DNA from: Melioribacteraceae bacterium
GTDB taxonomy: Bacteria > Bacteroidota > Ignavibacteria > Ignavibacteriales > Melioribacteraceae
NCBI GenBank assembly: GCA_041658245.1
Contig: JBBAAM010000007.1
Location: 4,089-68,088, forward strand
Direction: 5' to 3'
Length of the DNA stretch: 64,000 nt
Shown: in pieces, positions 29,174 to 47,424 of the stretch
How the letters are laid out: every line of letters starts with the position of its first letter
Position numbering within the stretch: the stretch's first letter is position 1
Notes under the pieces: model-generated
What the model was told of the DNA's origin: nothing
What the model saw: the letters and a program-made list of their open reading frames with translations, nothing else
Databases searched by the model: none
Made by a program: the position numbers and the translations under genes

Positions 29174-30169
29174 CTAGTTGTTTTCTGGTTTATCTTTTAT
29201 ATACTTGTCAACATCCATACCGAACTCAAGTCCGTAATTTTCAACGATCTCGATCAACTCAGCCAAAGATTTTCTTCCGAAATTTCTAAACTTAAGCATT
29301 TCGCTTTCATCTCTCTTAACAAGATCGGATAAGTTTTTGATGTTTGCAGCTTTTAAGCAATTATGTGAACGGACACTCAACTCAAGATCGTCAACATTTG
29401 TTAAAAGAATCTTTTTGATTCTTTCTGCTTCAGCATCTTTTTCATTTTCAACTTTTTCTTCTTCAGGCTCAGCATCAAAGTTGATGAATATTTGAATATG
29501 ATCTTTCAATATTTTTGCTGAACCGGAAAGAGCTTCTTCCGGTGTTATTGATCCGTCAGTATGAATATCAATTGATAATTTTTCATAATCATTTTTTTCA
29601 CCGATACGTACGTTTTCAACATTGTAATGAACATTAATGATCGGTGTAAATATCGAATCAATCGGGATTGTACCAATAGTCATTTCCGGAATTTTCTGTT
29701 CATTGGAAGGAACATATCCTTTTCCAATTCCGAACTTTAATTCCATATTTAACTTTGCATCAGAGTTCAAGCGCGCAATGTGAAGATCCGGGTTTAATAT
29801 TTCAATATCCGGACAAGCTTTTTGAATATCTCCGGCTCTAAATTCTTTTGAACCGTTAAAAGTAATTTCACAACCGGTAACTTTCTTATTAACGATTCTC
29901 ATTCTTACTTTTTTCAAATTAAGAATAAGTTCTGTAACGTCTTCAACTACACCGGGAACTGTTGAAAACTCGTGTAAGACTCCCTCAATCTTAATAGCAG
30001 TTACTGCAGCTCCGGTAAGGGATGATAACAACACTCTTCTTAAAGCATTGCCTAATGTAACTCCAAAACCTCTCTCAAGAGGTTGGATCAGAAATCTTCC
30101 AAAATTTTCTTTACTTGAAGATTCGTCGAGAACGACACCATCGGGCATCTTTATGAATGGATAACTCAT
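29174..30169 (-). CDS. rpoA: DNA-directed RNA polymerase subunit alpha
   Basis: FGVTLGNALRRVLLSS motif and C-terminal domain ELSVRSHNCLK. Alpha-operon synteny. Confidence 0.95.
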   Translation of the reverse strand: MSYPFIKMPDGVVLDESSSKENFGRFLIQPLERGFGVTLGNALRRVLLSSLTGAAVTAIKIEGVLHEFSTVPGVVEDVTELILNLKKVRMRIVNKKVTGCEITFNGSKEFRAGDIQKACPDIEILNPDLHIARLNSDAKLNMELKFGIGKGYVPSNEQKIPEMTIGTIPIDSIFTPIINVHYNVENVRIGEKNDYEKLSIDIHTDGSITPEEALSGSAKILKDHIQIFINFDAEPEEEKVENEKDAEAERIKKILLTNVDDLELSVRSHNCLKAANIKNLSDLVKRDESEMLKFRNFGRKSLAELIEIVENYGLEFGMDVDKYIKDKPENN

Positions 30170-30195
30170 TTAGTATCCTCTTTATAATTTTATAA

Positions 30196-30822
30196 TTACT
30201 TAGAATACAACTCAACAATCAATTGTTCGTTTGCATTCAATGGAATATCTTCTCTTTCAGGAACATTTAAGAATGTACCGGATAGAGTAGCTTTATCTAC
30301 TGACAACCAACTGTAGACGTTGTCTTTTGTTCTTCTTAAGGAATTGTGAATAGCATCAAGCTTTTTACTTTTATCTCTAACAGAAATTACATCGCCGGAA
30401 GAAAGTGAGAATGAAGGAATATTAACAATTTGCCCATTAACGGTAAAGTGCCTGTGAAGAACTAATTGACGGGCAGATTTTCTTGAAGGTGCAAACCCAA
30501 GACGGAAAACTGTATTATCCAATCTCTTTTCTAAAAGTTTAATTAAGTTACCACCGGTAACACCTTTTTGACGAATTGCATTATCAAAATAATTATGGAA
30601 CTGAGTTTCCTGCAACCCATAAATTCTTTTTACCTTCTGTTTTTCTCGAAGCTGAACGCCGTATTCAGAAAATTTTGTTCTTCGTGTTAAGCCGTGTTGC
30701 CCAGGTGCATAGTTCTTCTGTTCCAACGGGCATTTTTCGGATAAGCACTTAGATCCTTTTAAAAATAATTTTGTCTTTTCCCTTCTGCATAATCTGCAAC
30801 TCGGGCCAGTGTATCTTGCCAT
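30196..30822 (-). CDS. rpsD: 30S ribosomal protein S4
   Basis: [16 protein letters not shown]-terminus and S4 domain. Synteny. Confidence 0.95.
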
Positions 30823-30838
30823 CTAAAGTTTCTCCTGA

Positions 30839-31225
30839 TTAAACTCTTCTGCGTTTTGGTGGTCTGCAACCGTTATGAGGAATTGGCGTTTGATCTTTGA
30901 TTGATAGAATATCCAATCCTGCTGTATTTAAAGCTCTGATTGCTGCTTCTCTTCCTGAACCGGGACCTTTAACAAGCACATCAATTTTTCTTAGTCCTAA
31001 ACCATGCGCTTCTTTACCGGCAGCTTCTGCGGTAACTTGTGCAGCAAATGGAGTATTTTTTCTTGAACCCTTAAAACCGTTTTTACCGGCTGAAGACCAA
31101 GAAATAGTATTTCCATAAATATCTGTAATCGTAACTATCACGTTGTTGAAAGTGGCTTTAATATGTGCAACACCAACAGCATCAACATGAACTTTCTTTT
31201 TAGTCTTTTTAACAACTTTTGCCAA
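30839..31225 (-). CDS. rpsK: 30S ribosomal protein S11
   Basis: [15 protein letters not shown]...[13 protein letters not shown]...[13 protein letters not shown]. Confidence 0.95.
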
Positions 31226-31252
31226 TTTAACTCCTCAATAAAAAATAATTAA

Positions 31253-31636
31253 TTACTTCTTAGCCGGTGTTTTCTTTTTGCCGGCAACTGTTTTACGTTT
31301 TCCTTTACGCGTTCTTGAGTTAGTTCTAGTACGCTGTCCGCGAACAGGTAAACTTCTTCTGTGGCGAAGACCGCGATATGAACCAATATCCATTAATCGT
31401 TTAATATTCTGTTGAACTTCACTTCTTAATGAACCTTCAACTTTATAATCGGCAGTCATTACAGAACGAATCTTTGCAATTTCTTCTTCTGTTAATTCAC
31501 TAACTTTTTTATTCGGATTAACATTCGCTCTAGTAAGAATTTCCATTGCCGATTTATCACCGATACCGAAAATGTAAGTAAGACCGATGAAAGCTTTTTT
31601 ATTTTTTGGTAAATCAATACCTGCTAAACGAGCCAA
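31253..31636 (-). CDS. rpsM: 30S ribosomal protein S13
   Basis: [13 protein letters not shown]...[20 protein letters not shown]. Confidence 0.95.
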
Positions 31637-31654
31637 ATCTATAACCTCCTAAGT

Positions 31655-31768
31655 TTAACCTTGTCTCTGTTTATGTTTAGGGTTTTTACAAATAACTCTA
31701 ACAACCCCTTTTCTTTTAATTATCTTACAGTTTTCACAAATCTTGCGAACAGATGAGCGAACCTTCAT
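31655..31768 (-). CDS. rpmJ: 50S ribosomal protein L36 (37 aa, absent from ORF track)
   Basis: Manual translation [37 protein letters not shown]. Canonical position between infA and rpsM. Confidence 0.95.
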
Positions 31769-31778
31769 TTCTACTCCG

Positions 31779-31997
31779 TTATTTATATCTGTATGTAATT
31801 CTACCTTTTTTCAAATCGTAAGGTGAAAGTTCTATGGCAACTTTATCACCAACCAAAATTTTTATGAAATGCATTCTCATTTTACCGGAAATATGAGCAA
31901 GAATTTCGTGGCCGTTATCGAGTCGGACTTTAAAATGTGCATTAGGTAAAGTTTCAGTAACTATTCCGTCAACCTTTATCGGTCCTTGTTTAGCCAT
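31779..31997 (-). CDS. infA: Translation initiation factor IF-1
   Basis: 72-aa S1-like OB protein ([29 protein letters not shown]). Synteny. Confidence 0.95.
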
Positions 31998-32000
31998 TTA

Positions 32001-32762
32001 TCAGCACTTTGTTAATATTTCTGGTTTACCATCAATAATTACAACAGTATGTTCAAAATGTGCAGAAGGTTTTCCGTCTGCTGTTAAAACTGTCCATCCG
32101 TCTTCAGCAACAATAACTTTATAAGATCCCATATTCACCATCGGTTCAAGAGCGAGTGTCATAGCATTCTTTATCAAAGGTCCGTTTCCCTTTTTTCCGT
32201 AGTTAGAAATTTGCGGATCTTCATGAAGATGTTTACCAATTCCGTGGCCGCATAGATCTCGTACTACTGAGAATCCGTTTTCTTCAACAAGTGACTGAAC
32301 AGAACTGGAATAATCACCAAGTCTGCTTCCTTCTTTCAATTGTTCAATACCTAAGTACAATGATCTTTCAGTTACATCCAACAATTTTTGTTTTTCATCA
32401 GAGATTATTCCAACTGCTACTGAAAGAGCTGCATCTCCAAAGTATTTATTCTTTTCAACACCAACATCAATCGAAAGAATTTCACCTTCTTTTAGAACTC
32501 TGTTGCCGGGAATCCCGTGAACAACCTCATCATCAATTGAAGAACAAATAGAACCGGGAAAATCAAAAGAACCTGCTTGAGAATATCCTTTAAATGCCGG
32601 TCTTCCATTATTACTTAATATATAATCTTCAGCAATCTTATCCAGTTCAATAGTCGTTATACCAGGTTTGACATAACGCTTCAATAATTGTAGAACTTCA
32701 GCAACTATAACACAGCTTTCGCGAATTAAATCAATCTCTTTTTTGCTTTTTATTAGGATCAC
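32001..32762 (-). CDS. map: Type I methionine aminopeptidase
   Basis: MILIKSKKEIDLIRES..., metal ligands in the DVGV, GHGIG and EHTV blocks, GTG start. It follows secY directly, with no adk between. Confidence 0.95.
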   Translation of the reverse strand: MILIKSKKEIDLIRESCVIVAEVLQLLKRYVKPGITTIELDKIAEDYILSNNGRPAFKGYSQAGSFDFPGSICSSIDDEVVHGIPGNRVLKEGEILSIDVGVEKNKYFGDAALSVAVGIISDEKQKLLDVTERSLYLGIEQLKEGSRLGDYSSSVQSLVEENGFSVVRDLCGHGIGKHLHEDPQISNYGKKGNGPLIKNAMTLALEPMVNMGSYKVIVAEDGWTVLTADGKPSAHFEHTVVIIDGKPEILTKC

Positions 32763-32775
32763 ATCAAAAACTTAA

Positions 32776-34116
32776 TTAGAATCTTCTACCTTTTAACTTA
32801 CCGGATTTCATGAAACCGTCGTAATGTCTCATCAATAAGTGTGATTCGATCTGCTGTAATGTATCAAGAGCAACACCAACAATAATAAGCAAACTAGTAC
32901 CGCCAAAGAATGACGCAAAACTACCGCTGACACCAAATTTTGAAATGAACGCCGGAAGAATTGCAACGATTGCCAAGAAGAATGATCCCGGCAATGTAAT
33001 CTTTGTTAAAATATTATCTATAAAATCTGCAGTTTGTTTTCCTGGTCTTATGCCGGGAATAAATCCGCCCTGCTTTTTCATATTCTCTGCAACGTCCTGC
33101 GGGTTGAATGCAATTGCTGTATAGAAATACGTAAAGAAAATAATCATCAACGCATAAATAATTGAATATGTTACAGACTGATAATGAAAATAATTAGCAA
33201 TGTATCCAATAAACTCGCTGTTAGGAAAAAATGAAAACATAGTACTTGGAATAAACATAATTGATTGAGCAAAAATAATCGGCATAACTCCGGCTGTGTT
33301 AACTCTCAATGGTATATATTGAGTAACACCGCCGTAAACTTTTCTTCCGACAACTCTTTTAGCATATTGAACAGGAATTCGCCTGGTTCCTTGTGTAACA
33401 AGTACAACACCTGCAATAATCAACACCATCAAAGAAATAATAACAACTTCTATAACTAAATTGCGTTGTCCGGCTGCAATTAATCTATATTCATCAAGTA
33501 ACGCAAAAGGAAATCTGTTAATTATACCAATAAAGATTATTAATGAGATTCCGTTACCAATTCCTTTTTCAGTGATCTGTTCACCCATCCACATAGTAAA
33601 CATAGTACCTGCAACAAGAAGTGTTACGGACGATAAACTCCAGACTACACCTCTAACAGCTTCCGGAACAATTGGTCCGCCTGCAGATACTGTCATGTTC
33701 ATTAGATGAATTGTAACACCCCAAGCTTGAAGAGCAGAAATAAGAACAGTACCATAACGGGTAAGCTGTGTTAATTTCTTTCTTCCTTCTTCGCCTTCTC
33801 TCTGCAATTTTTGAAAATATGGAATTACCGCGCCGGCAATCTGCAATATAATTGATGCAGAAATGTAAGGCATAATTCCAAGCGCAAGGATAGCAGCATT
33901 AGAAAACGCACCGCCTACAAAAAGATCATAAAGACCGAACAAATTGTCAGTGCCTGAATTCTTAGTTGCTTCATGTAATAATGTGGTATCAATACCTGGC
34001 AGCGTGATGTGAGTTCCAATTCTAACGATTACGAGCAGAGCAAGAGTGTAAAGAATTCTCTGTCGTAATTCATGAATCTTAAAAATATTCCGGAATGTTT
34101 CTTGAATTTTTGCCAT
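32776..34116 (-). CDS. secY: Preprotein translocase subunit SecY
   Basis: 10-TM SecY sequence (LALGIMPYISASIILQ...) at the end of the spc operon. Confidence 0.95.
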   Translation of the reverse strand: MAKIQETFRNIFKIHELRQRILYTLALLVIVRIGTHITLPGIDTTLLHEATKNSGTDNLFGLYDLFVGGAFSNAAILALGIMPYISASIILQIAGAVIPYFQKLQREGEEGRKKLTQLTRYGTVLISALQAWGVTIHLMNMTVSAGGPIVPEAVRGVVWSLSSVTLLVAGTMFTMWMGEQITEKGIGNGISLIIFIGIINRFPFALLDEYRLIAAGQRNLVIEVVIISLMVLIIAGVVLVTQGTRRIPVQYAKRVVGRKVYGGVTQYIPLRVNTAGVMPIIFAQSIMFIPSTMFSFFPNSEFIGYIANYFHYQSVTYSIIYALMIIFFTYFYTAIAFNPQDVAENMKKQGGFIPGIRPGKQTADFIDNILTKITLPGSFFLAIVAILPAFISKFGVSGSFASFFGGTSLLIIVGVALDTLQQIESHLLMRHYDGFMKSGKLKGRRF

Positions 34117-34580
34117 TAAAATTTAATCTCTTTAATAGTTCCACCGACAGATTCAATTTTTTCTTTTGCAGAGACACTAAAAAAATGAGCTTCGATATTT
34201 AACTTTGCTTTTAGTTCTCCAAAACCAAGAATTTTAAAAGGAGCTGCGGCTTTAGAAATTACTCCATTCTTATATAAAGAAACTGCGTTGATTACTCCAT
34301 CTTGAACTTTCTTATCATCAACTAATTTTTGTAATCTTGCAAGATTAATAACTTGATTAACAATTTTGAACGGGCTGTGAAATCCTCTTTTGGGAATTCT
34401 TCTTTGAAGCGGCATCTGACCGCCTTCAAACCAAGCAGGAAATTTTGCACCGGAACGTGAACGCTGACCGTTTTCACCGCGCGTAGCCGTACCTCCGTGC
34501 CCGGAACCTTCGCCTCGTCCTATTCTTTTAATTTTATTATGAGAACCTTTTGCAGGTTTTAGATTACTTAGAATATCCAT
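34116..34580 (-). CDS. rplO: 50S ribosomal protein L15
   Basis: RIGRGEGSGHGGTATRG...MPLQRRIPKRGF. Confidence 0.95.
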   Translation of the reverse strand: MDILSNLKPAKGSHNKIKRIGRGEGSGHGGTATRGENGQRSRSGAKFPAWFEGGQMPLQRRIPKRGFHSPFKIVNQVINLARLQKLVDDKKVQDGVINAVSLYKNGVISKAAAPFKILGFGELKAKLNIEAHFFSVSAKEKIESVGGTIKEIKF

Positions 34581-34588
34581 TTCTTCCT

Positions 34589-34777
34589 CTATGCTTCAAT
34601 TTCTTCTACTTTAACAAGATGATGAACTTTTTTTACCATTCCTCTAATTTGAGGAGTATCATTGTGAACAACAAAATGATTTGGTCTGCTAAGACCTAAC
34701 GCTTTAATAGTTAACTTTTGCGGAACAGGTCTGTCAATAACACTTCCTACTTGAGTAATTTTTATTTTCTTTGTCAT
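34589..34777 (-). CDS. rpmD: 50S ribosomal protein L30
   Basis: MTKKIKITQVGSVIDRP...LGL. The start is set at the ATG preceded by GAGGA, not the TTG of the tracked ORF. Confidence 0.9.
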   Translation of the reverse strand: MTKKIKITQVGSVIDRPVPQKLTIKALGLSRPNHFVVHNDTPQIRGMVKKVHHLVKVEEIEA

Positions 34778-34789
34778 TATAATCCTCAA

Positions 34790-35302
34790 TTACAAATTGA
34801 ATAACTCGGAAACTTTTAATCCGCGTTTACGAGCCATTGCTCTAGCATCAACAAGATTGAGCAAAGCATTCAAAGTTGCTTTTACTTGATTGTGCGGATT
34901 ACTTGAACCGAGAGATTTTGTCAAAATATCTTGCACGCCTGCAGCTTCAAGAACAGCACGAACACCGCCGCCTGCTATTAATCCTGTACCGGGAGTAGCT
35001 GGTTTTAACAAAACTGAACCGGCTCCAAACTTGCCAATAATAGTATGAGGAATTGTTCCTTTTAATAGATGAACACGGTAAACATTTTTCTTTGCATCAT
35101 CTACGCCTTTTGAAATAGCATCGGTAACTTCGTTTGCTTTACCAAGACCAACGCCAACATGACCGTTTCCGTCTCCAACAACAACAATTGCATTAAAGCT
35201 GAATCTTCTACCACCTTTAACAACTTTTGCAACTCTGTTAATGTGAACAATTTTTTCTTTTAAATTCTCAAGACCGGATACTTTTTTGTACTTGAAATTC
35301 AA
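34790..35302 (-). CDS. rpsE: 30S ribosomal protein S5
   Basis: [43 protein letters not shown] Shine-Dalgarno upstream. Confidence 0.95.
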
Positions 35303-35360
35303 TTTTAACTCCCTTGTTTACAGACTTTGTTAATCAACTTTTTTATTGAACCGTCTAACC

Positions 35361-35434
35361 TGGCTGCCGGGAGAGGAGTCGAACCTCTACAGACGCCTCC
35401 AAAGGGCGTTGTCCTGCCATTAGACGACCCGGCA
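35361..35434 (-). tRNA. tRNA-Gln (anticodon UUG), CCA encoded, inside the spc operon
   Basis: TGCCGGG-TC-GTCT-AATGGCA-GGAC-A-ACGCC-CTTTGGA-GGCGT-CTGT-AGAGG-TTCGACT-CCTCT-CCCGGCA-G-CCA. 7/4/5/5-bp stems; U8, A14, GG, U33 and TTCGA present; U1:A72 and G73 as in bacterial tRNA-Gln. Confidence 0.9.
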
Positions 35435-35438
35435 GTTT

Positions 35439-35804
35439 CTATAATTTTAATCCGCCTTCGCGGGCTCCCTCGGCAACAGCTTGAATTCTGCCGTGGTACT
35501 CATAACCGCTTCTGTCAAATACAACAGTGGTAATACCTTTTTCCAATGCTTTCTTTGCTATTAATTTTCCGACCATTTTACTTTTCGAAACTTTTCCTTT
35601 TAAACTTTTTACTTCTTCAACAATTTCTTTAGAAAGTGAAGAAGCTGCAACTAACGTTACACCTTTTACATCATCAACCAACTGAGCATGCATGTTGTTC
35701 AAACTTCTAAACACAGTTAAACGCGGACGATCTGCAGTCCCGGAAAGTTTTTTACGAACTCTAACTTTTTTTCTTGTTCTTCTTTTATTGTCTTTCAAAA
35801 ACAT
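35439..35804 (-). CDS. rplR: 50S ribosomal protein L18
   Basis: RKKVRVRKKLSGTADRPRLTVFRSLNNMHAQLVDD...YHGRIQAVAEGAREGGLKL. The TAG stop lies 4 nt before the tRNA-Gln 5' end. Confidence 0.95.
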   Translation of the reverse strand: MFLKDNKRRTRKKVRVRKKLSGTADRPRLTVFRSLNNMHAQLVDDVKGVTLVAASSLSKEIVEEVKSLKGKVSKSKMVGKLIAKKALEKGITTVVFDRSGYEYHGRIQAVAEGAREGGLKL

Positions 35805-35820
35805 TTTTCAAATTCTCCTA

Positions 35821-36357
35821 TTACTTACCTGCAGTTTTGCCAGCTTTGCGGACAATAACTTCTCCGGTATACTTAATACCTTTACCTTTGTAAGGTTCAG
35901 GTTTCTTGAATGATCTAATTTTAGCTGCAATTAATCCCACTAACTCTTTATCGCTTCCGAATATTTTTATTTGTGTAGGAAGAGGAATTTCAAATTTAAT
36001 TCCTGGTGGAGGCATAAGAAGAATCGGGTGAGAATAACCCAAATTAAATAATGCTGATTCTCCTTTTGCTTCAACTTTATAACCTACGCCAACTATTTCT
36101 AGAGATTTAGAATATCCTTCGGTAACACCTTTAACCATATTTGCAATAAGTGCACGTGTTAAACCGTGAAGCGCTCTATTTTGTTTTTGATCATCCGGTC
36201 TTGTAACAATAATTTCATCCTTTTGAATATCAACTATCATATTAGGATGAATTTTCATTTGAAGTTCGCCGAGTTTACCTTTTACTTTCAAGATACCGTC
36301 GGTCTTCGTTACAGTTACACCTTGGATCGGTACTGGTTTTTTACCTATACGTGACAA
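35821..36357 (-). CDS. rplF: 50S ribosomal protein L6
   Basis: MSRIGKKPVPIQGVTV...KGKGIKYTGE. Confidence 0.95.
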   Translation of the reverse strand: MSRIGKKPVPIQGVTVTKTDGILKVKGKLGELQMKIHPNMIVDIQKDEIIVTRPDDQKQNRALHGLTRALIANMVKGVTEGYSKSLEIVGVGYKVEAKGESALFNLGYSHPILLMPPPGIKFEIPLPTQIKIFGSDKELVGLIAAKIRSFKKPEPYKGKGIKYTGEVIVRKAGKTAGK

Positions 36358-36380
36358 TTTCTATTCCTTGATTAAAATTT

Positions 36381-36776
36381 TTACCAAACGTGGCAGACTA
36401 CTTCTCCGCCAACAGCTTCTTTTTTTGCTTGTTTATTTGTTAATAAACCTTTTGGTGTTGAAAGAACCGCCATTCCAAGTCCGTTTAATACTCGCGGAAG
36501 TTCATCTTTACCAACATAACTTTTCAGTCCCGGTTTAGAAATCCTTTTAATTCCGGTTATTGATGGAGTGCCGTTAATATATTGAAGATGTACTCTAAGA
36601 ATATTCTGTTTATTATCTTCAACTACGTTATAGTCTCTAATAAATTTATTGTTCTTTAAAATCTCTGCTAAGCTAATCTTCATTTTTGAAGAAGGAATAT
36701 CTACAAATTTCTTTTTAGCTTTAACAGCATTTCTAATTCTTGTCAAAAAATCCGCAATCGGATCGGTAGTATTCAT
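36381..36776 (-). CDS. rpsH: 30S ribosomal protein S8
   Basis: [13 protein letters not shown]...GGEVVCHVW. Confidence 0.95.
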
Positions 36777-36793
36777 TTACATTTCTCCTTCGA

Positions 36794-37063
36794 TTACCAA
36801 CTTGCTTTTTTTAAACCGGGAATTTCACCTCGCAAAGCCATTTCGCGAAGCACTAAACGAGAAATACCAAATTTTCTATAATATGCTCTTGGTCTTCCGG
36901 TCATTTTACATCTATTATGTAAACGGGTGGGTGAAGAATTTCTTGGCAGAAGTTGTAATCCTTCATAGTCACCCTTTTCTTTTAATTCTTTTCTCTTCTG
37001 TGCATACTTTTCGTAAAGTTTTCTTCTTTTATCTTCACGAGCTAATAAACCTATTCTTGCCAT
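36794..37063 (-). CDS. rpsN: 30S ribosomal protein S14 (long, non-zinc form)
   Basis: [39 protein letters not shown]. Confidence 0.95.
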
Positions 37064-37072
37064 GATTTACCC

Positions 37073-37726
37073 TTAATTAATTTCCTTTTTTCTAAATGGT
37101 AATCCAAAAGCTGTTAAAAGTTCGAATGCTTCTTTATCAGTTTTTGCAGTTGTTACAAACGTTATATCCATCCCTAAGATTTTTGTTACTTTATCGGGAT
37201 TTATTTCCGGGAAAATAATTTGTTCTTTAATTCCCATTGTATAATTACCGCGTCCGTCAAATGATTTATCAGGTACACCGCGGAAATCGCGAACTCGAGG
37301 TAAAGCAAGAGAAACGAAACGATCTAAAAATTCATACATCATTTCTCTACGTAAAGTTACCTTTGCACCAATTTTCATTCCTTCGCGCAACTTGAAATTG
37401 GATATTGATTTTTTAGAAATCCGTACGGATGCTTTTTGTCCGGTTATAGTTTCAAGATCTTTAACTGCTTCATCTAATATTTTAGGATCTTGAACAGCCT
37501 GACCAACACCCATATTAACAACTATTCTATCTAATCGAGGAACCTCCATAATACTTTTGTAGCTGAATTGCTCTCTAAGTTTTGGAATTATCTCTTTAGA
37601 ATATTTTTCTTTTAACCGAGCAGGAATTTTAGGTCCAGCAACTTTAGGTTCAGCAGGTTTTTTAACTTCTGCTTCTTTACCTTTTTTTTCTTTCTGCTCT
37701 TTTTTCACTTTTTGTTCTTTTGCCAT
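37073..37726 (-). CDS. rplE: 50S ribosomal protein L5 with Lys-rich N-terminal extension
   Basis: The L5 core begins near PARLKEKY...[14 protein letters not shown]. About 35 extra K/E-rich residues precede it. Confidence 0.95.
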
Positions 37727-37750
37727 TGCGATTATACGTCCTTAAAATTG

Positions 37751-38077
37751 TTAACCAAGCATTTCGCCGCTTGATCTGCTGACTCTTGCACTTTTCTTTT
37801 TACCGGTTTTTTCATCTATAATTAATTTAGAACCGATTCTTGTTTTTTCATTTGTTTTAGGATCAAGAATCATAACATTAGAAACATTAACTGGAGCTTC
37901 TTTTTCTGTAATTCCACCTTGAGGATTTTTCTGAGTCGGTTTTGTATGACGTTTACGTAAATTAACACCTTCAACAATAACTCTATTAATCTGAGGAAAT
38001 ACTTTTAAAACTTTTCCGGTTTTACCTCTGTTATTTCCGGCTATTACAATTACATTATCGTTTTTTCTGATCTTCAT
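37751..38077 (-). CDS. rplX: 50S ribosomal protein L24
   Basis: [26 protein letters not shown] (KOW motif). Confidence 0.95.
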
Positions 38078-38086
38078 TTTCTATCC

Positions 38087-38455
38087 TTATAAAACTTCTG
38101 GTGCTAGAGAAATTATCTTCATAAATTTTTTATCTCTTAGTTCTCTTGCAACCGGGCCAAAGATACGTGTTCCTTTCGGTTCGCCTTGAGGATTTAAAAG
38201 TACTGCTGCATTTTCATCAAAGCGTATATATGAACCATCTTTTCTTCTAACTTCTTTTTTAGTCCTAACAACAACGGCACGTGATACTTCCCCTTTTTTA
38301 ACGCCGCCACCGGGAATAGCGGATCTAACACTGACAACAATAACATCACCAACACTAGCATAACGACGGTTACTTCCGCCAAGTACTCTAATGCATCTGA
38401 CTTTCTTGGCTCCGGAATTATCCGCCACTACTAAATTTGTTTCTTCTTGTACCAT
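38087..38455 (-). CDS. rplN: 50S ribosomal protein L14
   Basis: [27 protein letters not shown]... Confidence 0.95.
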
Positions 38456-38482
38456 GATCTATCAGCTCCTCATCAAACTTTT

Positions 38483-38740
38483 TTACTTGGCTTTTTCAAC
38501 AACTTCAACCAAGCGCCATTTTTTTCTTTTACTCAAAGGACGAGTTTCCATAATCTTAACAACATCTCCGATTGTGCATTCATTTTTCTCATCGTGTGCC
38601 ATCAATTTTGTGGTCTTCTTAAAATATTTTTTGTAAAGCGGATGAGCAATGCGTCTCTCAATTGCTACAATAATACTTTTCTGCATCTTATTGCTAACAA
38701 CAGTACCGATCCTTGTCTTTCTTATACTTCTTTTCTCCAT
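38483..38740 (-). CDS. rpsQ: 30S ribosomal protein S17
   Basis: [28 protein letters not shown]...[14 protein letters not shown]. Confidence 0.95.
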
Positions 38741-38757
38741 AGGAACTCGAATACTCC

Positions 38758-38976
38758 TTATTTATTTGCCTTTGAGTTTTTTGTTTCCTGCATCTCTCGT
38801 TCTATTAGAATAGTTTTCATCTTTGCAATATCTTTTCTAACAAGACGCAGTTTTGCTGTGTTAGTTAATTGTTTTAATTCCTGTTGAAATTTCAAATCCA
38901 CTAGATTTTTTTGATCTTCAAGAATTCTTTTCTTGATCTCATCAGTAGACATTTCTCTTATTTCAAAAATCTTCAT
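38758..38976 (-). CDS. rpmC: 50S ribosomal protein L29
   Basis: [27 protein letters not shown]... Synteny between rplP and rpsQ. Confidence 0.9.
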
Positions 38977-38992
38977 TTTCTCTTAAATCCTT

Positions 38993-39412
38993 TTATGATT
39001 CTAAGTCCGGACGTTGAGTAACTTTTGTTTTGATCGGTAGTTTATGAGATGCAAGGTTTAAAGCTTCAATTGCCGTTTTCTTATCAACACCGCCAATCTC
39101 AAACATAATTCTACCGGGTTTTACAACAGCAACCCAAAATTCCGGTGGACCTTTTCCTTTACCCATTCTTGTTTCAAGAGGTTTCTTAGTAACTGGTTTA
39201 TCCGGAAAAATTCTAATCCACATTTTTCCATCTCTTTTCATATGACGTGATAAAGCAACACGGCAAGCTTCGATCTGACGGCTGGTAATCCAAGCCGGTT
39301 CCAATGCTTTCAATCCGTAATCACCAAAGTTTACAAGGTGGCCGCGTGTAGCTTTTCCGGCTCTTCTACCTCTATGTGCTTTACGAAACTTTACTCTTTT
39401 GGGCATTAACAT
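38993..39412 (-). CDS. rplP: 50S ribosomal protein L16
   Basis: [16 protein letters not shown]...RMGKGKG. Confidence 0.95.
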
Positions 39413-39431
39413 TAGAAAAACTCCTCAAACC

Positions 39432-39447
39432 TGCCTGCCGGCAGGCA
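39432..39447. other. GC-rich 16-bp perfect palindrome in the rpsC-rplP spacer
   Basis: TGCCTGCCGGCAGGCA folds as a 6-bp stem (TGCCTG/CAGGCA) with a CCGG loop, inside a 41-nt intercistronic spacer in an otherwise AT-rich region. Confidence 0.6.
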
Positions 39448-39453
39448 AGCTCT

Positions 39454-40095
39454 TTATTCGGATGAACGTTTACCTAAAATTTCTCCGCGGCAAATCCAAA
39501 CTTTAACACCAATTGAACCATAAATTGTATGCGCGGTTGCCGTTGCGTAATCTATATCTGCTCTAATTGTGTGCAACGGAATTCTACCTTCTTTATATTG
39601 TTCAGTACGGGCCATTTCAGAACCGGCTAATCTTCCTGCGCACATAATTCTTATACCTTCGGCACCCATTCTCATAGCAGATGTAATTGATTGCTTCATG
39701 GCTCTTCTAAATGAAACTCTTCCTTCGATCTGACGTGAAATATTTTCTGCAACTAATGCTGCATCAAGTTCAGGTCTTTTAATTTCTGTAATTTGAATCT
39801 TAACTTCTTTCTCTGTTAATTTTCTTAATTCTTCTTCGATCTGTGCAATTTCTTTTCCACTCTTGCCTATCACTACACCGGGTCTTGATGTATGAATAGT
39901 CAAGATTATATTCTTGGAAGTTCTATCAATTATAATAGATGAGATACCTGCATTCTGTAATCTTTTTCTAACGTAGGTTCTAAGCTTTTTATCTTCAACA
40001 AGTTTTGTAGCATAACTTTTATTTTCGTACCAATTCGAATCCCACCCTCTAATGATACCTACTCTAAAACCAATTGGATTAACCTTTTGACCCAA
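39454..40095 (-). CDS. rpsC: 30S ribosomal protein S3
   Basis: [14 protein letters not shown]...KH domain...[10 protein letters not shown]. Confidence 0.95.
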
Positions 40096-40110
40096 AACTT
40101 CCTCCTCAGA

Positions 40111-40455
40111 TTACTTTTTTGTAGCAACTACAATTGTTACGTGATTAGATCGTTTTCTTATTCTATATGCTCTCCCCATTGGTGCGGGAGAAATTCTTTT
40201 TAGTGTTGGTCCTACATTTACAAAAGCTTCTTTAACAAATAGATCAGAGACTTCATGCTTAGTATTATCATCTTTGTTCATCAAATTAGAAACAGCGGAA
40301 CGTAAAACTTTTTCTGCATCCTTTGAAGAATGTTTTGGTGAAAAGTGAAGTATCTCAATTGCTTGATCTACAGATTTACCTCTAATTATATCAACCACCA
40401 ATCTCATCTTACGGGGAGACGTTCCAATATATTTATGAATTGATTTTGCTTCCAT
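40111..40455 (-). CDS. rplV: 50S ribosomal protein L22
   Basis: MEAKSIHKYIGTSPRKMRLVVDIIRGKSV... The start is set at an internal ATG, 14 nt after the rpsS stop; the tracked N-terminal extension overlaps rpsS. Confidence 0.9.
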   Translation of the reverse strand: MEAKSIHKYIGTSPRKMRLVVDIIRGKSVDQAIEILHFSPKHSSKDAEKVLRSAVSNLMNKDDNTKHEVSDLFVKEAFVNVGPTLKRISPAPMGRAYRIRKRSNHVTIVVATKK

Positions 40456-40468
40456 TATTCTATCCCTA

Positions 40469-40759
40469 TTAAGCTTTAACTTTAGATGCTTTTTCTGCTT
40501 TGGTACCCGGATGACCTCTGAAAATTCTTGTCGGTGAAAATTCCCCGAGCTTATGGCCAACCATATTTTCAGAAATGTAAACAGGAATCATTTTATTACC
40601 GTTATGTACGGCAATTGTATGTCCCACAAAATCCGGTGTAATAGTACTTGTACGCGACCAGGTTTTGATTATTTTTTTCTGATTAGTTTCGTTGAGCTTT
40701 TTTACTTTTGCCATCAACTTGATGTCGATGTATGGACCTTTTTTTACTGACCTTGGCAT
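40469..40759 (-). CDS. rpsS: 30S ribosomal protein S19
   Basis: [12 protein letters not shown]...[24 protein letters not shown]. Confidence 0.95.
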
Positions 40760-40772
40760 ATTTTATTCTAAC

Positions 40773-41597
40773 CTATTTTCTTCTTTTAACAATGTATTTG
40801 TTAGTTCTATTTTTTTTCTTTCTTGTTTTTAATCCTTTTGCTTTCTGTCCCCAAGGTGAAACCGGATGCCCGCCGCCAGATGTTTTACCTTCGCCGCCGC
40901 CCATCGGGTGATCAACCGGATTCATTGCAACACCACGAGTATGTGGACGAATACCTAACCATCTGCTTCTTCCTGCTTTACCAAGACTTATATTTTCATG
41001 ATCAATATTTCCAACAACACCGTAAGTAGCCATACACTCAACACTAATCATTCTTACTTCGCCGGAAGGCATTTTTAATTGAGCAAACTTTCCTTCTCGT
41101 GCCATTAATTGAAGAGATGCACCGGCTGACCTTCCAAGCTGTCCGCCTTTACCGGGTTTCATTTCAACATTATGAATAAAACTTGCAAGCGGAATTTCTT
41201 TTAATGGTAATGCGTTACCAACTTTTATTTCTGAACCGCTACCTGAAACAACAGCATCACCAACTTTCAAACCGTCTGGAGCGATAATATATCTTTTTTC
41301 TCCATCTGCATAATTAAGAAGAGCTATTCTTGAAGTTCTATTAGGATCATATTCAATTGAAAAAACTTTTGCCGGAATTCCACTCTTATCACGTTTAAAA
41401 TCAATTATTCTATAACGTCTCTTATGACCACCGCCGCGATGACGTGATGTAACTCTACCAAGATTATTTCTTCCACCGGATTTTTTTATTACGCCGGTCA
41501 AAGATTTTTCCGGAGTAGATTTCGTAATCTCTTCAAAAGAAGAGATACTCATAAATCTTGTTCCAGGAGTATTTGGTTTTAATTTTCTAATTGCCAT
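40773..41597 (-). CDS. rplB: 50S ribosomal protein L2
   Basis: [15 protein letters not shown]...GGGHKRRYR...[15 protein letters not shown]. Confidence 0.95.
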
Positions 41598-41623
41598 TTA
41601 ATTTAAGCTCCGATTCGGTAATA

Positions 41624-41920
41624 CTATGCATGACCAAAAATATCTATTGTTTGACCTTCTTTTAAGGTAATAACTGCTTTTTTGAATTTTGCTGTTCTTC
41701 CAGAAAATCTACCTTTTTTAGTAAACTGGGTTTTCATTTTCCCTTTATATCGAATTGTATTGACGGAAGTAACATCAACATTAAATTTTTCTTTGAGGGC
41801 TTTTGCGATTTGAATTTTATTAGCATCTACTGCAACAATAAATCCAAATTTATTAGAATATTTTTCGCTGATACCACTCATCTTTTCAGTAATTAAAGGG
41901 CGTATTAAAACACTTTTCAT
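41624..41920 (-). CDS. rplW: 50S ribosomal protein L23
   Basis: IRPLITEKMS...FIVAVDANKIQIAKA. Synteny. Confidence 0.9.
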   Translation of the reverse strand: MKSVLIRPLITEKMSGISEKYSNKFGFIVAVDANKIQIAKALKEKFNVDVTSVNTIRYKGKMKTQFTKKGRFSGRTAKFKKAVITLKEGQTIDIFGHA

Positions 41921-41933
41921 TTTTTAAACCAGT

Positions 41934-42560
41934 TTAATTAATTGAGCTTTCTAAAAGATTAACTGCACTTTTTTGTAAAACTAAAACTTGATTATTCAAC
42001 AGATCATATGCTGAAGCTTTGTTTGCTTCAAGAATATTTATCCTAGGAACATTTCGTCCTGATTTATATACATTTTCCAGCGTACCGTTTGTAAGTAGTA
42101 AAGTCCTTTTACCTTTTACATTCAAAGCATTCAGAATGGAAATGAATTTTTTTGTCTTTGGCGCTTCAAAATTGAAATCTTCAACAATAAGAATTTGATT
42201 AGCTTTCGCTTTGTATGATAATGCTGATCTTCTTGCAAGAGCTAAAACTTTCTTATTGAGTTTCTGTCTGTAATCTCTCGGTTTAGGACCAAATATTGAT
42301 CCGCCGCCAATCCAAAGAGGAGAGCGTATTGTACCTGCACGAGCTCCGCCACGACCTTTTTGTTTCCAAGGTTTTTTACCGCCGCCGCTAACTTCACTTC
42401 TTTCTTTTGCTTTGTGAGTTCCTTGACGTTGATTTGCAAGGTAAGCTTTGACAGCTAAGTAAATCACATGATCGTTCGGTTCGATTTCGAAAATCTCTTT
42501 TGAGAGTTCAACAGTCTCACCAGATTTTGTACCGTCTTTTTTATAAACTTCTAATTTCAT
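41934..42560 (-). CDS. rplD: 50S ribosomal protein L4
   Basis: SGGGKKPWKQKGRGGARAGTIRSPLWIGGG. The start is set at the ATG (MKLEVY...) rather than the upstream TTG. Confidence 0.9.
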   Translation of the reverse strand: MKLEVYKKDGTKSGETVELSKEIFEIEPNDHVIYLAVKAYLANQRQGTHKAKERSEVSGGGKKPWKQKGRGGARAGTIRSPLWIGGGSIFGPKPRDYRQKLNKKVLALARRSALSYKAKANQILIVEDFNFEAPKTKKFISILNALNVKGKRTLLLTNGTLENVYKSGRNVPRINILEANKASAYDLLNNQVLVLQKSAVNLLESSIN

Positions 42561-42572
42561 TTTATTCAATAA

Positions 42573-43193
42573 TTATTTATTGATAGCAACAATTGAATTA
42601 ATAGAGCCGGGAACTGCTCCTTTTACCATAACAATATTTTTATCGGCAATTACTTTTACAACTTTAAGATTGGAAATAGTTGTATTCTCAAAACCCATTC
42701 TTCCGGCCATACGTTGACCTTTAAAAACTCTTGATGGATAAGAACTTGAGCCAATAGATCCGGGAGCTCTTAATCTATCGCTTTGGCCGTGTGTAGTACC
42801 TCCGACACCGCCGAAGTTATGTCTTCTCATTACACCTTGGAAACCTTTACCTTTATTCTTACCGGAAACTTTAACTTTATCACCGATTTGAAAAATATCT
42901 ACTTTAACTTCATCACCAATTTTAAATTGTGAAGATTCAAAGTTTCTAAACTCTTTTAGAGTTTGTGGAATTTTCAATCCGTGTTTTTTATAATAATCGA
43001 GCTGAGGTTTACTTGTTCTCTTTTCTTTCTTTTCGCCGAAACCAAGTTGAACAGCTTCGTAGCCATCCTTTTCTTTTGAACGCACAGCATAAACATTACA
43101 CGGACCGGCTTCCAAGATAGTTACGGGAATAATTTGACCGTTTTCCGAGAATATATTTGTCATTCCTAATTTTTTTGCTAGCAAGCCAGGCAT
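42573..43193 (-). CDS. rplC: 50S ribosomal protein L3
   Basis: MPGLLAKKLGMTNIF...GKGFQGVMRRHNFGG. Confidence 0.95.
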   Translation of the reverse strand: MPGLLAKKLGMTNIFSENGQIIPVTILEAGPCNVYAVRSKEKDGYEAVQLGFGEKKEKRTSKPQLDYYKKHGLKIPQTLKEFRNFESSQFKIGDEVKVDIFQIGDKVKVSGKNKGKGFQGVMRRHNFGGVGGTTHGQSDRLRAPGSIGSSSYPSRVFKGQRMAGRMGFENTTISNLKVVKVIADKNIVMVKGAVPGSINSIVAINK

Positions 43194-43204
43194 TTCTATG
43201 ATTC

Positions 43205-43513
43205 CTATAACTTAATCTCTATATCAACGCCGGCAGGAATATCTAACTTGCTCAATGCGTCAACTGTTTTGTTGTTTGAGTTATGAATATCTATAATTCT
43301 TTTATGAGCCCTGATCTCAAATTGCTCACGTGATTTTTTATCAACATGCGGAGATCTTAAAACTGTAAAAACTGTTCTGCGTGTTGGCAGCGGAATCGGA
43401 CCGGATACAATAGCGCCGGTACTTTTTACAGTCTTGATAATCTTTTCAGTTGATTTATCAATAAGAATATGATCGTAAGACTTCAACTTGATTCTAATTT
43501 TCTGACCAGGCAC
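43205..43513 (-). CDS. rpsJ: 30S ribosomal protein S10
   Basis: [17 protein letters not shown]...[29 protein letters not shown] start. Confidence 0.95.
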
Positions 43514-43541
43514 TTTTTCTAATCTCCTTGTTCAACATAAT

Positions 43542-43559
43542 GCCCCGTATTAGCGGGGC
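43542..43559 (-). terminator. Short GC stem-loop between tuf and rpsJ (attenuator or partial terminator candidate)
   Basis: The minus strand reads GCCCCG-ctaata-CGGGGC, followed by ATTATGTT. It lies 14 nt after the tuf stop. Confidence 0.4.
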
Positions 43560-43572
43560 TCAAATAATTTAT

Positions 43573-44778
43573 TTACTCTACAATCTTTGTTACGAAACCT
43601 GCACCAACTGTTCTACCGCCTTCACGAATAGCGAATTTCAATCCTTCTTCCATAGCAATCTCAGAAATCAGATCAATCTTAAGTTGTACGCTATCACCAG
43701 GCATAACCATTTCTGTACCTTCAGGTAATGTTGCAATACCAGTTACGTCAGTTGTTCTGAAATAGAACTGTGGTCTGTAACCATTGAAGAACGGTGTATG
43801 ACGTCCGCCTTCATCTTTTGAAAGAATATAAACTTTACCTTCAAATTTCTTATGCGGAGTAATAGAACCGGTTTTTGCTAAAACCATTCCTCTTTCAATT
43901 TCATCTTTATCAATACCTCGTAAAAGAATACCGGCATTATCACCAGCTATAGCTGCATCAAGTTCTTTACGGAACATTTCGATACCGGTAACAACTGTTT
44001 TCTTATGAACTCCTAAACCGATCAATTCAATTTCTTCTTGAATCTTAACTTGACCTCTTTCAACTCTACCGGTAGCAACAGTACCACGACCAGTAATTGA
44101 AAATACATCTTCAACAGGCATCAAGAATGGTTTTTCAACACTTCTTTCAGGAATAGGAATGTAAGTATCAACAGCATTCATTAATTCCCAAATACAATTA
44201 TATCGCGGATCTGAAGGATCAGCACCAGATGCACCTGCTTCTAATGCATGCAAAGCAGAACCTTTAATAATCGGTATTTCATCACCAGGGAATTCATATT
44301 TGGTTAGAAGTTCTCTTAATTCCATTTCAACTAAGTCAATCAACTCTTGATCATCAACTGCATCAACTTTATTCATGAACACAACGATTTTTGGTACACC
44401 TACCTGACGAGCAAGAAGGATGTGTTCGCGTGTTTGAGGCATAGGACCATCAGTAGCAGCAACAACTAAAATAGCACCGTCCATTTGAGCAGCGCCGGTG
44501 ATCATGTTCTTAACATAATCTGCGTGACCGGGACAGTCTACATGAGCATAGTGCCTGTTTGCAGTTGAATATTCAACGTGAGCAGTAGCGATAGTAATAC
44601 CTCTTTCTCTTTCTTCAGGTGCATTATCAATACTGTCAAATGTTCTTATTTGAGATAAACCTTTTTTAGCCAGTGCCATGGTGATAGCTGCAGTAAGAGT
44701 AGTTTTACCATGGTCGACGTGTCCGATAGTACCAATATTGACGTGAGGTTTACTACGGTCAAATTTTTCTTTTGCCAT
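43573..44778 (-). CDS. tuf: Elongation factor Tu
   Basis: [18 protein letters not shown] and NKVD motifs. 401 aa. Confidence 0.97.
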
Positions 44779-44829
44779 CTTAAATACTCTCCTTAATGTG
44801 TTTTATTTTTTTAATGATTTATTTATTGT

Positions 44830-46929
44830 CTAATAGGATTCAACATGTTTCTTTGCTTGAGATTTTTCCTGAATCTCTTCGGCAACAGATTTTGGTACTT
44901 CGGAATAATGTGCAAATTGCATTGTGTAAATTGCACGTCCTTGAGTCATAGATCTTAGTGTAGTAGCATAACCAAACATTTGTGCTAATGGAACCATCGC
45001 TTTGATAACCTGTGCATCTTTTCTGGAATTGAATCCTTCAATTTTTCCTCTCCTGGAATTTAGGTCGCCCATAACATCACCTAGGTAATCTTCAGGAGTA
45101 ATAACTTCAACACTCATCATTGGTTCAAGTAAAATAGGACTAGCTTTTAGTGCACCTTGTTTAAACGCCATAGAAGCAGCAACTTTAAATGAAATTTCAT
45201 CCGAATCAACATCATGGTAAGAACCATCGTATAATCTTGCTTTTACATCAACAACGGGGTAACCAGCCAATACACCATTTCTCATAGAATCTTGTAAACC
45301 ATGCATAATAGGATTAATATATTCTTTTGGTACTACTCCACCAACAATATCATTTTCAAATTCAAAACCTTTTCCTGGTTCATTCGGAGAAAGTTCAATC
45401 CAAACATGTCCATATTTACCACGACCACCGGATTGTTTAACAAACTTACCTTCAGCCTGAACTGTTTTAGAGATTGTTTCTCTATAAGCAACCTGAGGTT
45501 TACCAACATTAGCTTCTACTTTAAATTCGCGTCTCATTCTATCAACAAGAATTTCGAGATGTAATTCACCCATTCCGCTAATTAGTGTCTGACCAGTTTC
45601 ATCATCAACTTTTACCTTAAATGTTGGATCCTCATCAGAAAGCTTTGCTAACGATTCAGAAAGTTTATCCTGATCCGCTTTAGTTTTAGGTTCAATTGCA
45701 ATTTGAATAACAGGTTCTGGGAATACCATTTTTTCGAGAACAATAGCATCATCTTCAGTACAAAGAGTATCTCCGGTTCTTGTGTGTTTCAAACCAACAA
45801 TTGCAGCAATATCACCACATCTAATTTCTTCTAAATCTTCTCTTGTGTTAGCATGCATCTGAAGAACACGACTAACTCTTTCTTTTTTATCGGAGACAGA
45901 ATTAAAAATATAAGACCCAGCTTTTAATTCACCTGTGTAAACTCTAATAAATGTTAACTTTCCTACATACGGATCTGTCATAATCTTAAAAGCAAGAGCA
46001 GCAAATTTTTCATTGGAAGCTATTTTTCTTTCAACGTGATCATTCTTAAAAATATGATGAGCAGAAAGTGATCCGGAATCTAAAGGAGAAGGAAGAAAAT
46101 CTACAACAGCATCAAGTAGTTGCTGAACGCCTTTATTCTTAAACGATGATCCGCACAATACTGGAATTATTTTCCCTTGAATTGTAGCTTGACGTAATAC
46201 GTTTTTAATTTCTTCTTCTGAAATTTCTTTGCCTTCAAGATATTTTCCCAACAAGGTATCATCAACATCAGAAACAGCTTCCAACATTTCGGTTCTATAT
46301 TTCTGAGTTAATGGTAATAAATCTGCCGGGATGTCAACAACTTCGTATTCAGCACCGAGCGATTCTTCAATAAACATTATTGCTTTCATTTTCATCAAAT
46401 CAATAATACCTCTGAAGAGATCCCCTTCTCCTACAGGTAAATTAATTGGAACAGCAGGCGCTCCTAATTTTTCCTTCATCATTTGAACTGCATGAAAAAA
46501 ATCAGATCCAACTCTATCCATCTTATTTACAAAAGAAATTCTTGGAACATTATATTTATCAGCTTGTCTCCAAACCGTCTCTGATTGTGGTTCCACTCCG
46601 CCAACAGCACAAAAAAGTGCAATAGCACCATCAAGGACTCTTAGTGATCTTTCAACTTCAACAGTAAAATCAACATGCCCAGGAGTATCAATAATATTTA
46701 TTTGATGATCTCTCCAAAATGTGGTAGTGGCAGCACTCGTAATTGTAATGCCTCTTTCTTTTTCCTGTTCCATCCAGTCCATAGTTGCTGCACCATCATG
46801 AACCTCGCCCATTCTGTGTAATTTTCCAGTATAATATAGAATGCGTTCAGTTGTAGTGGTCTTACCAGCATCAATATGAGCCATAATTCCAATATTTCTT
46901 ACTCTATTTATTTCGACACGTTTTGACAT
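44830..46929 (-). CDS. fusA: Elongation factor G
   Basis: [21 protein letters not shown] and NKMD motifs. 699 aa. str-operon synteny. Confidence 0.97.
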
Positions 46930-46951
46930 CTAACTTAATAATTCCTTTCAA

Positions 46952-47419
46952 CTACCATTTAAAATGTGCAAAAGCTTTATTCGCTTCAGCCATACGATGT
47001 GTATCATCTTTTTTCTTAACTGCAGAACCTTCGCCATTAGCGGCGGCCATTAATTCAGAAGCAACCTTTAATGCCATAGATTTATCTTTACGATCTCGTG
47101 CATATGTTTTAATCCAACGAAATGCTAATGCAGTTCTTCTTTCAGGTCTTACTTCCATTGGTACTTGATAAGTAGCTCCACCAACTCTTCTACTTCTAAC
47201 TTCTACCAACGGCTGAACATTCTGTACCGCTTTCTTAAAAACATCCAAAGCAGGTTTCTTTGTTTTTTGTTCAATCAAACCGAAGCTATCGTAAACGATA
47301 GTTCTTGCTGTAGATTTTTTACCATCCCACATCAAATAGTTAATAAATTTCGAAACAAGTATATCATTATACTTTGGATCTGGTTTTAAATATCTTTTCT
47401 CTGATCTTTTTTTTCTCAT
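46952..47419 (-). CDS. rpsG: 30S ribosomal protein S7
   Basis: [19 protein letters not shown]...AHFKW. Confidence 0.95.
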
Positions 47420-47424
47420 AGTAA

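Follow-up and report, generated by a model that had tools for sequence, protein, structure and literature searches.

A tRNA-Gln(UUG) gene between the L18 and S5 ribosomal-protein genes, conserved in Ignavibacteria

The spacer between the genes for ribosomal proteins L18 (rplR) and S5 (rpsE) in the window, by which we mean the whole 64-kb stretch of DNA analysed here, contains a tRNA-Gln gene with the anticodon UUG. The same gene order recurs in related Ignavibacteria, where the cloverleaf is maintained by compensatory changes. We propose that this tRNA is probably transcribed as part of a long ribosomal-protein operon and cut out of its RNA.

Results

A tRNA-Gln gene in the L18-S5 spacer

According to ARAGORN, positions 35361..35434 of the minus strand encode a tRNA-Gln whose anticodon is ttg. 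Rfam agrees: its model RF00005 matches over the full length (1-71) at 59 bits (E = 3.3e-10), the gathering score being 29. A lineage-specific covariance model built from the copies of the relatives gives the site 101.6 bits (E = 1.7e-21); because of this score we regard it as a genuine tRNA-Gln gene, far beyond chance. The junction is laid out as follows.

35439..35804, minus strand: rplR (L18), NCBIfam TIGR00060 equivalog at 129.9 bits against a cut-off of 87.85; stop codon TAG at 35439-35441
35435..35438, minus strand: gap of 4 nt (AAAC) from the L18 stop to the tRNA; RNase P site predicted between 35435 and 35434
35361..35434, minus strand: tRNA-Gln(UUG), 71 nt through discriminator G73, plus the encoded CCA
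35303..35360, minus strand: tRNA-S5 spacer, 58 nt from the CCA end to the S5 TTG
35309..35315, minus strand: Shine-Dalgarno-like AAGGGAG, 6 nt upstream of the S5 TTG start
34790..35302, minus strand: rpsE (S5), NCBIfam TIGR01021 equivalog at 221 bits against a cut-off of 164.05; TTG start

Read on the minus strand, the tRNA has the acceptor stem TGCCGGG/CCCGGCA, the D stem GTCT/GGAC (the last pair being a U-G wobble), the anticodon stem ACGCC/GGCGT with the loop CTTTGGA, the variable region CTGT and the T stem AGAGG/CCTCT with the loop TTCGACT. Its first pair is U1:A72, its discriminator is G73 and its CCA is encoded; U1:A72 and the purine discriminator G73 are identity elements of bacterial tRNA-Gln. 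The D arm of tRNA-Gln resembles the D arm of tRNA-Glu, which is what charging by a non-discriminating GluRS would lead us to expect. The predicted fold of the 161-nt region containing the gene does not differ significantly in stability from shuffled sequences (z = -1.56), as is usual for tRNAs. A pseudogene or a chance cloverleaf is ruled out by the ARAGORN, Rfam and covariance-model scores together with the covariation in the stems described below.

The L18-S5 spacer has a total length of 136 nt. The tRNA-Gln shares the minus strand with the operon and, according to the ORF list, is the only gene between L18 and S5. A first-pass annotation of this DNA had placed a tRNA-Gln(UUG) cloverleaf at 35361-35434, on the coding strand of the rplR-rpsE spacer with gaps of 4 nt and 58 nt, and had given S5 its own AAGGGAG Shine-Dalgarno; all of this is confirmed on the sequence, each stem and loop, G73 and the CCA being reproduced with no correction needed. 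The tRNA-finding run that it had proposed for the region gave the ARAGORN call reported above. Among the 34 tRNA-bearing relatives described in the next section, S5 starts with TTG in 24 and is preceded by a Shine-Dalgarno-like motif in 23.

Conservation of the gene and its fold in relatives

For comparison we used 80 genome loci of 8.5 kb, which were retrieved via the S5 protein and searched by ARAGORN and tblastn. The sample consists of Ignavibacteria-type metagenome-assembled genomes (MAGs) along with Kapaibacteria, Calditrichia, KSB1, Neomarinimicrobiota and a few Firmicutes and Deltaproteobacteria; Ignavibacteriaceae are represented by MAGs carrying that label rather than by I. album itself. 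A look at the rplR-rpsE spacer of related genomes, suggested by the first-pass annotation, shows that 34 of the 80 loci have a tRNA-Gln(ttg) in the same slot and on the same strand as the operon, and ARAGORN finds no other tRNA anywhere in the 80 8.5-kb loci. The L18-tRNA-Gln-S5 order is also present in the genome of the isolate Rosettibacter firmus and in at least 14 metagenome contigs among 120 listed matches to the tRNA core. It further occurs in contigs whose encoded S5 matches the S5 of Melioribacter roseus P3M-2 exactly, and it is through this identical protein that we assign the order to M. roseus.

We aligned 36 orthologous copies of the tRNA-Gln, 25 of them distinct. Stem cells are paired in 99.8% of cases across the 36 copies, and double (compensatory) changes are seen in 9 of 21 pairs. 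None of 500 shuffles matches these pairing values, and controls with slid partners fall to 46-58% paired. All four stems are kept, three of them through compensatory change, while the D stem is invariant. The anticodon is TTG in every one of the 36 copies, and the anticodon, D and T loops vary little or not at all. U1:A72 is found in 35 copies and A1:U72 in the remaining one, L010 (24 UA and 1 AU among the 25 distinct rows); the discriminator is G in 31 copies and A in 5. CCA is encoded in only 6 of the 34 relatives, with position 74 always C. The stem pairing and the compensatory changes indicate that this tRNA-Gln is under purifying selection as a working tRNA, neither a pseudogene nor a mimic.

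Two peculiarities of the assemblies should be mentioned. In two short-read assemblies of M. roseus-like S5 loci (L206 and L207), the contig ends 91 and 70 nt upstream of S5. Both break within the tRNA-Gln or beside it; the conserved tRNA evidently serves as a breakpoint of assembly and could hide the L18-tRNA-S5 order in fragmented MAGs. At another locus (L016, about 3990-4010), the S5 frame shifts in an A-run near codon 15, which is probably a homopolymer error of a long-read assembly and not biology.

Gain and loss of the tRNA

We built a neighbour-joining tree from nine ribosomal and SecY proteins (1431 columns, 100 bootstraps). The Ignavibacteria and the Kapaibacteria-type lineages are grouped at 94% bootstrap, and all tRNA-bearing loci lie on one side of this clade, at a node with weak support (30%). 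Inside a 99% clade, a tRNA-less group of nine (100%) is nested with two tRNA-bearing groups (100% each). The simplest history to be read from this tree would be that Ignavibacteria gained the tRNA once, early on, and lost it cleanly at least once; it is much less likely that the same tRNA was gained several times independently at this junction. The depth of the gain is uncertain because the tree is a distance tree on few genes.

The L18-S5 spacers of tRNA-less relatives are mostly 0-34 nt long, with 52-60 nt in L076 and L077, and a few Kapaibacterium and other tRNA-less loci have spacers of 105-151 nt of unrelated sequence. Searches with Rfam and with the 36-copy covariance model at E up to 10 found no tRNA remnants in the 47 tRNA-less loci. 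The Kapaibacterium-type loci with spacers of 107-151 nt (L055, L057, L060, L062 and L064, the spacers ending at about 4000) are likewise without a tRNA remnant or any other tRNA or Rfam match (Rfam, lineage model). Three of them (L060, L062 and L064) have TTTTACTGAGTGTTGC in common directly 5' of the S5 GTG start, and the spacer of L055 contains a short direct repeat (GTCATCGTATAT.GTTT).

The surrounding gene cluster

The features of the window that surround the junction are listed here.

29174..47802, minus strand: fused str-S10-spc-alpha cluster, S12 to RpoA, from the ORF list and NCBIfam
about 59041, minus strand: secE start
59066-59139, minus strand: tRNA-Trp(cca), 1 nt after the rpmG (L33) stop and about 24 nt before the secE ATG
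59141-59306, minus strand: rpmG
59356-59618, minus strand: tRNA-Tyr/Gly/Thr cluster

The fused cluster spans 18.6 kb and about 32 genes. Since all its intergenic gaps except the 136-nt L18-S5 spacer are at most 59 nt, there is hardly any intergenic room for promoters. Sixteen cluster genes were named by NCBIfam equivalog models (L14, L24, L5, S14, S8, L6, L18, S5, L30, L15, SecY, Map, IF-1, S17, S10 and RpoA), and the others were assigned from order and length. The S17-L14 gap, where the spc promoter sits in E. coli, is only 27 nt in this cluster. The L5 protein (37073-37726, minus strand) has a Lys/Glu-rich N-terminal extension of about 35 residues, and the NCBIfam L5 model matches from residue 36 only.

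The entire block from the tRNA-Tyr cluster (59.6 kb) through rpoA lies on one strand. The tRNA-Trp is the known rpmG-tRNA-Trp-secE-nusG arrangement and is thus the second tRNA embedded among the protein genes of this super-cluster. Upstream of tRNA-Tyr/Gly/Thr, at 59655-59662 on the minus strand, TATATTTG forms a perfect Bacteroidetes-type -7 box, with ATTG 20 nt further upstream. This suggests that the organism uses Bacteroidetes-like promoters, though its ribosomal-protein genes retain Shine-Dalgarno sequences.

Transcription signals around the tRNA

There is no terminator-like hairpin in the 136-nt spacer of the window or in L18. Scans by consensus, for a lineage in which the promoter rules are not established, gave no sigma-70-like promoter in the L18-S5 spacer of the window and no TAnnTTTG box on the operon strand of 33278-35990. 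In the relatives, the gap between L18 and the tRNA is 4-109 nt (median 17) and at most 7 nt in 13 of 34 loci; the gap between the tRNA and S5 has a median of 53.5 nt over the 34 loci. Because no promoter or terminator motifs are recognisable and little room is left between L18, the tRNA and S5, the tRNA-Gln is probably co-transcribed with the ribosomal-protein genes and then excised by RNase P and 3'-end processing.

At -1, the base just before the tRNA, T is found in 28 of the 34 loci, whereas the T frequency of the spacers is 0.34; the loci are not independent. The window has C at -1. T at -1 is a preferred context for bacterial RNase P, and this preference across relatives would fit an RNase P substrate.

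Some relatives do carry promoter-like boxes with the sequence TATATTTG, at the following positions of their loci.

L033, about 3958-3965: 25-29 nt before an S5 ATG that has no Shine-Dalgarno
L037, about 3958-3965: as in L033
L042, about 3938-3945: as in L033
L056, about 3786-3793: 30 nt before the tRNA

The box is conserved in L033, L037 and L042, which form one divergent Ignavibacteria subclade. Because the boxes precede S5 in these three loci and the tRNA in L056, the transcription architecture, as read from these motifs, clearly varies between lineages, and the tRNA site may be a true promoter-bearing operon boundary in some of them.

A further motif, GCCGGT, repeats the 5' acceptor strand 3-25 nt downstream of the tRNA-Gln in L015, L016, L032 and L043, and recurs more weakly in L013, L014, L038 and L040. 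In L032 it is followed by TTGTTTT, which has a terminator-like look. GCCGGT may pair with the 3' acceptor strand and so form an alternative helix affecting processing or read-through.

tRNA-Gln copies and codon use

Neither ARAGORN nor the lineage-specific covariance model finds a second tRNA-Gln in the 64-kb window. A metagenome scan with the conserved tRNA-Gln core gave at least 120 matching contigs (those listed being L084-L203), mostly from other phyla, so that it is a survey of contexts and not a per-genome gene count. Among these 120, no UUG tRNA of the spc type (at least 68/71 identity) occurs in another context, and a CUG version with an spc-type body outside the spc slot has only one candidate, at 65/71 (L100). 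Many unrelated, often high-GC lineages have the core of the D and anticodon arms (TCGTCTAAYGGYAGGAC..CGSCCTYTGGAGSCG) in their tRNA-Gln genes as well.

The 32 genes of the cluster (29174-47802) use 106 CAA and 59 CAG codons for Gln. The G-ending share is thus 36% for Gln, compared to 13% for Glu and 21% for Lys. Because CAG makes up this share of the Gln codons and M. roseus has 45 tRNA genes (PMC3534657), a separate tRNA-Gln(CUG) elsewhere in the genome is likely, as far as codon use and gene number allow such an inference.

Alternative explanations

Could the tRNA instead mark an operon boundary? It would then either have a promoter of its own in the end of L18 or be the final member of an L14-L18-tRNA unit. 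Transcription of S5-SecY and the genes beyond would begin anew at a promoter in the tRNA-S5 spacer or close to it, and no mRNA would be cut. The TATATTTG boxes before S5 and before the tRNA in the four loci above would suit such an arrangement, as would the Shine-Dalgarno that S5 has of its own in the window and a hairpin with a T-run 3' of the tRNA, found in only 3 of the 34 loci (L002, L016 and L032). A promoter inside the L18 or L6 coding sequence is also possible, the consensus scan having returned weak sigma-70-like matches at 35575-35604 and TAAATTTG at 35991-35998. In the window, however, neither the 136-nt spacer nor L18 contains a TAnnTTTG box or a terminator-like site, and no promoter would fit into the 4-nt gap before the tRNA. 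In L005, L012 and L011 the downstream gap of 28-37 nt is too short for a promoter plus a Shine-Dalgarno leader. Nor do the 200 nt that precede the tRNA contain TAnnTTTG more often than expected (2 of 34 loci against 2.8). We consider an operon boundary at this site unlikely, and co-transcription across it remains our preferred reading.

The tRNA-shaped sequence might also be a cis-acting processing or regulatory signal, or a decaying extra copy, with CAA and CAG being decoded by tRNA-Gln genes elsewhere. The CAG share in the cluster, which makes a CUG isoacceptor elsewhere likely, would agree with this, and the one clade that cleanly lost the spc copy has or had a tRNA-Gln elsewhere. Neither a signal nor a decaying copy is easily reconciled with an anticodon, a first pair (in all copies but one), a G or A discriminator and D and T loops that have been held constant over class-level divergence, or with four stems of which three were maintained via compensatory change. 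Moreover, in the 120 listed metagenome contigs, a tRNA with an identity of 68/71 or more to the spc-type set is always placed between L18 and S5. On this evidence such an explanation is very improbable. We give next to no credence to a recent insertion, a mobile-element attachment scar, an assembly artefact or a chance cloverleaf. Although integration at tRNA genes is common and the relatives include many MAGs, the same order occurs in dozens of independent assemblies including an isolate genome, and the Rfam and covariance-model scores are far above chance; the comparative data refute a recent insertion or artefact. In the window, no second copy of the 3' 22 nt of the tRNA was found with up to 3 mismatches, and there are no notable repeats around the tRNA-Gln. 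A mobile-element scar was rejected, as there is no repeat of the tRNA 3' end and only L18 and S5 adjoin the gene.

A model for expression of the tRNA

Following the reading that we prefer, the tRNA-Gln(UUG) would have become fixed in the rplR-rpsE spacer in early Ignavibacteria, been kept since, and been lost in at least one subclade. Having no transcription signals of its own, it would be transcribed by read-through of the fused str-S10-spc-alpha cluster. The cloverleaf would fold within the long ribosomal-protein RNA, and RNase P would cut at position 1, 4 nt after the L18 stop. Where the gene includes CCA, as in the window, the 3' end would be formed by exonucleolytic trimming or trimming of the RNase E type; in the many relatives that do not encode CCA, RNase Z and the CCA-adding enzyme would do so. 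As a by-product, the polycistronic RNA would be split into a part ending in L6-L18 and a part beginning with S5-L30-L15-SecY, and S5 would be translated from its own Shine-Dalgarno, not through coupling to L18. Co-transcription, the identities of the nucleases and the split of the mRNA are the steps that we infer from sequence.

What the placement does for the cell can be read in several ways. It may be a neutral relocation that was locked in because the tRNA is needed; if it is only that, it is a neat detail of annotation of minor weight. The placement could conceivably have an adaptive role in regulation. That the tRNA site serves to uncouple the two halves of the operon adaptively, as one form of such a role, appears doubtful. 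We would hold it similarly unlikely that this gene is the sole tRNA-Gln(UUG) and at the same time an obligatory processing site put to functional use, splitting the transcript of about 19 kb into two mRNAs of different stability or translation. If that were true, tRNA cleavage would replace the internal promoters and translational coupling of other bacteria, and the output of tRNA-Gln would be fixed at one copy per ribosomal-protein transcript. Termination on L18 and folding of the tRNA would compete, the stop codon being 4 nt from the cleavage site, and the system would represent a bacterial regulatory tRNA punctuation conserved across a class.

Discussion

The rplR-rpsE junction is among the most conserved bacterial gene adjacencies. 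A class-level tRNA within it is a rare genomic change and a possible phylogenetic marker for Ignavibacteria, for which the absence in Kapaibacteria-type relatives and the secondary loss in one subclade are both informative. The cultured Melioribacter roseus and Rosettibacter firmus would offer a natural bacterial system for the effect of tRNA excision from the middle of an mRNA that is polycistronic and essential on the stability and stoichiometry of its halves. To our knowledge, such excision has so far been studied mostly in organelles or with tRNAs at operon ends. We know of no functional link of tRNA-Gln to L18 or S5.

The L18-tRNA-S5 order has been visible in public genome annotations for years. 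In full-text literature searches we found no paper that describes a tRNA within the spc operon or within ribosomal-protein clusters of Ignavibacteria, in agreement with the first-pass annotation, which knew of none. That annotation had also allowed for the arrangement proving both widespread and already documented in the lineage. Widespread it is (34 of 80 loci, M. roseus-type contigs and R. firmus), whereas the searches returned no publication that documents it. That tRNAs are co-transcribed with genes of the translation apparatus is already known (tufB, metY-nusA-infB, secG-leuU and rpmG-tRNA-Trp-secE). What is new, and apparently undescribed, is the slot, the restriction to Ignavibacteria and the depth of conservation.

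Several known systems resemble this one in part. The tRNA punctuation model of mitochondria was reportedly put forward by Ojala, Montoya and Attardi in 1981. As in that model, excision of the tRNA-Gln would create the 3' end of the upstream mRNA together with the 5' end of the downstream one. Mitochondrial tRNAs, however, flank most genes and abut coding sequences, whereas here one tRNA accompanies about 32 genes; it is set off by spacers of 4 nt and 58 nt, and the adjoining L18 and S5 genes have an ordinary stop codon and a Shine-Dalgarno, respectively. The term mitochondrion-like punctuation, used in the first-pass annotation, is therefore overstated for a single tRNA with spacers on both sides in a cluster whose other junctions are tRNA-less. 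A ribosomal-protein operon of the Euglena gracilis chloroplast is said to hold an internal trnI cistron (Christopher and Hallick 1990, reportedly between rpl36 and rps14). It is similar in that a tRNA inside an S10/spc-type operon is released from polycistronic RNA. It differs in being a plastid case with another tRNA in another slot, and there is no evolutionary connection.

In Alphaproteobacteria, the tRNA-Sec gene is nested in selB, which suggests linked expression (PMC8124441). Here, too, a tRNA belongs to the transcription unit of a protein gene with a role in translation; tRNA-Sec is different in one respect: unlike the tRNA between L18 and S5, it lies inside the coding sequence and is functionally paired with the protein. 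For E. coli secG-leuU, it has been shown experimentally that RNase P separates the tRNA from the co-transcribed mRNA (PMC7049720). The tRNA-Gln would share with secG-leuU and with metY-nusA-infB a single mixed mRNA-tRNA transcript and separation by RNase P. In secG-leuU the tRNA comes last and is followed by a terminator, whereas protein genes continue past the L18-S5 tRNA, so that excision would cut the mRNA into two coding parts.

With its shared strand and tight spacing (4 nt and 58 nt), the tRNA-Gln fits the operon-embedded type of tRNA. It is like rpmG-tRNA-Trp-secE-nusG, where rpmG and tRNA-Trp are treated as part of the secE operon (Brandis 2021, PMC8046335), and like thrU-tyrU-glyT-thrT-tufB. 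In all of these, tRNAs on the coding strand stand between or before genes of the translation apparatus, separated from them by a few nucleotides; no signals of their own can be recognised, for the tRNA-Gln as far as motif scans go. The rpmG-tRNA-Trp-secE and tufB types are found at or near the start of their operons and across phyla; unlike them, the L18-S5 tRNA sits deep in the spc operon and is a feature of Ignavibacteria only.
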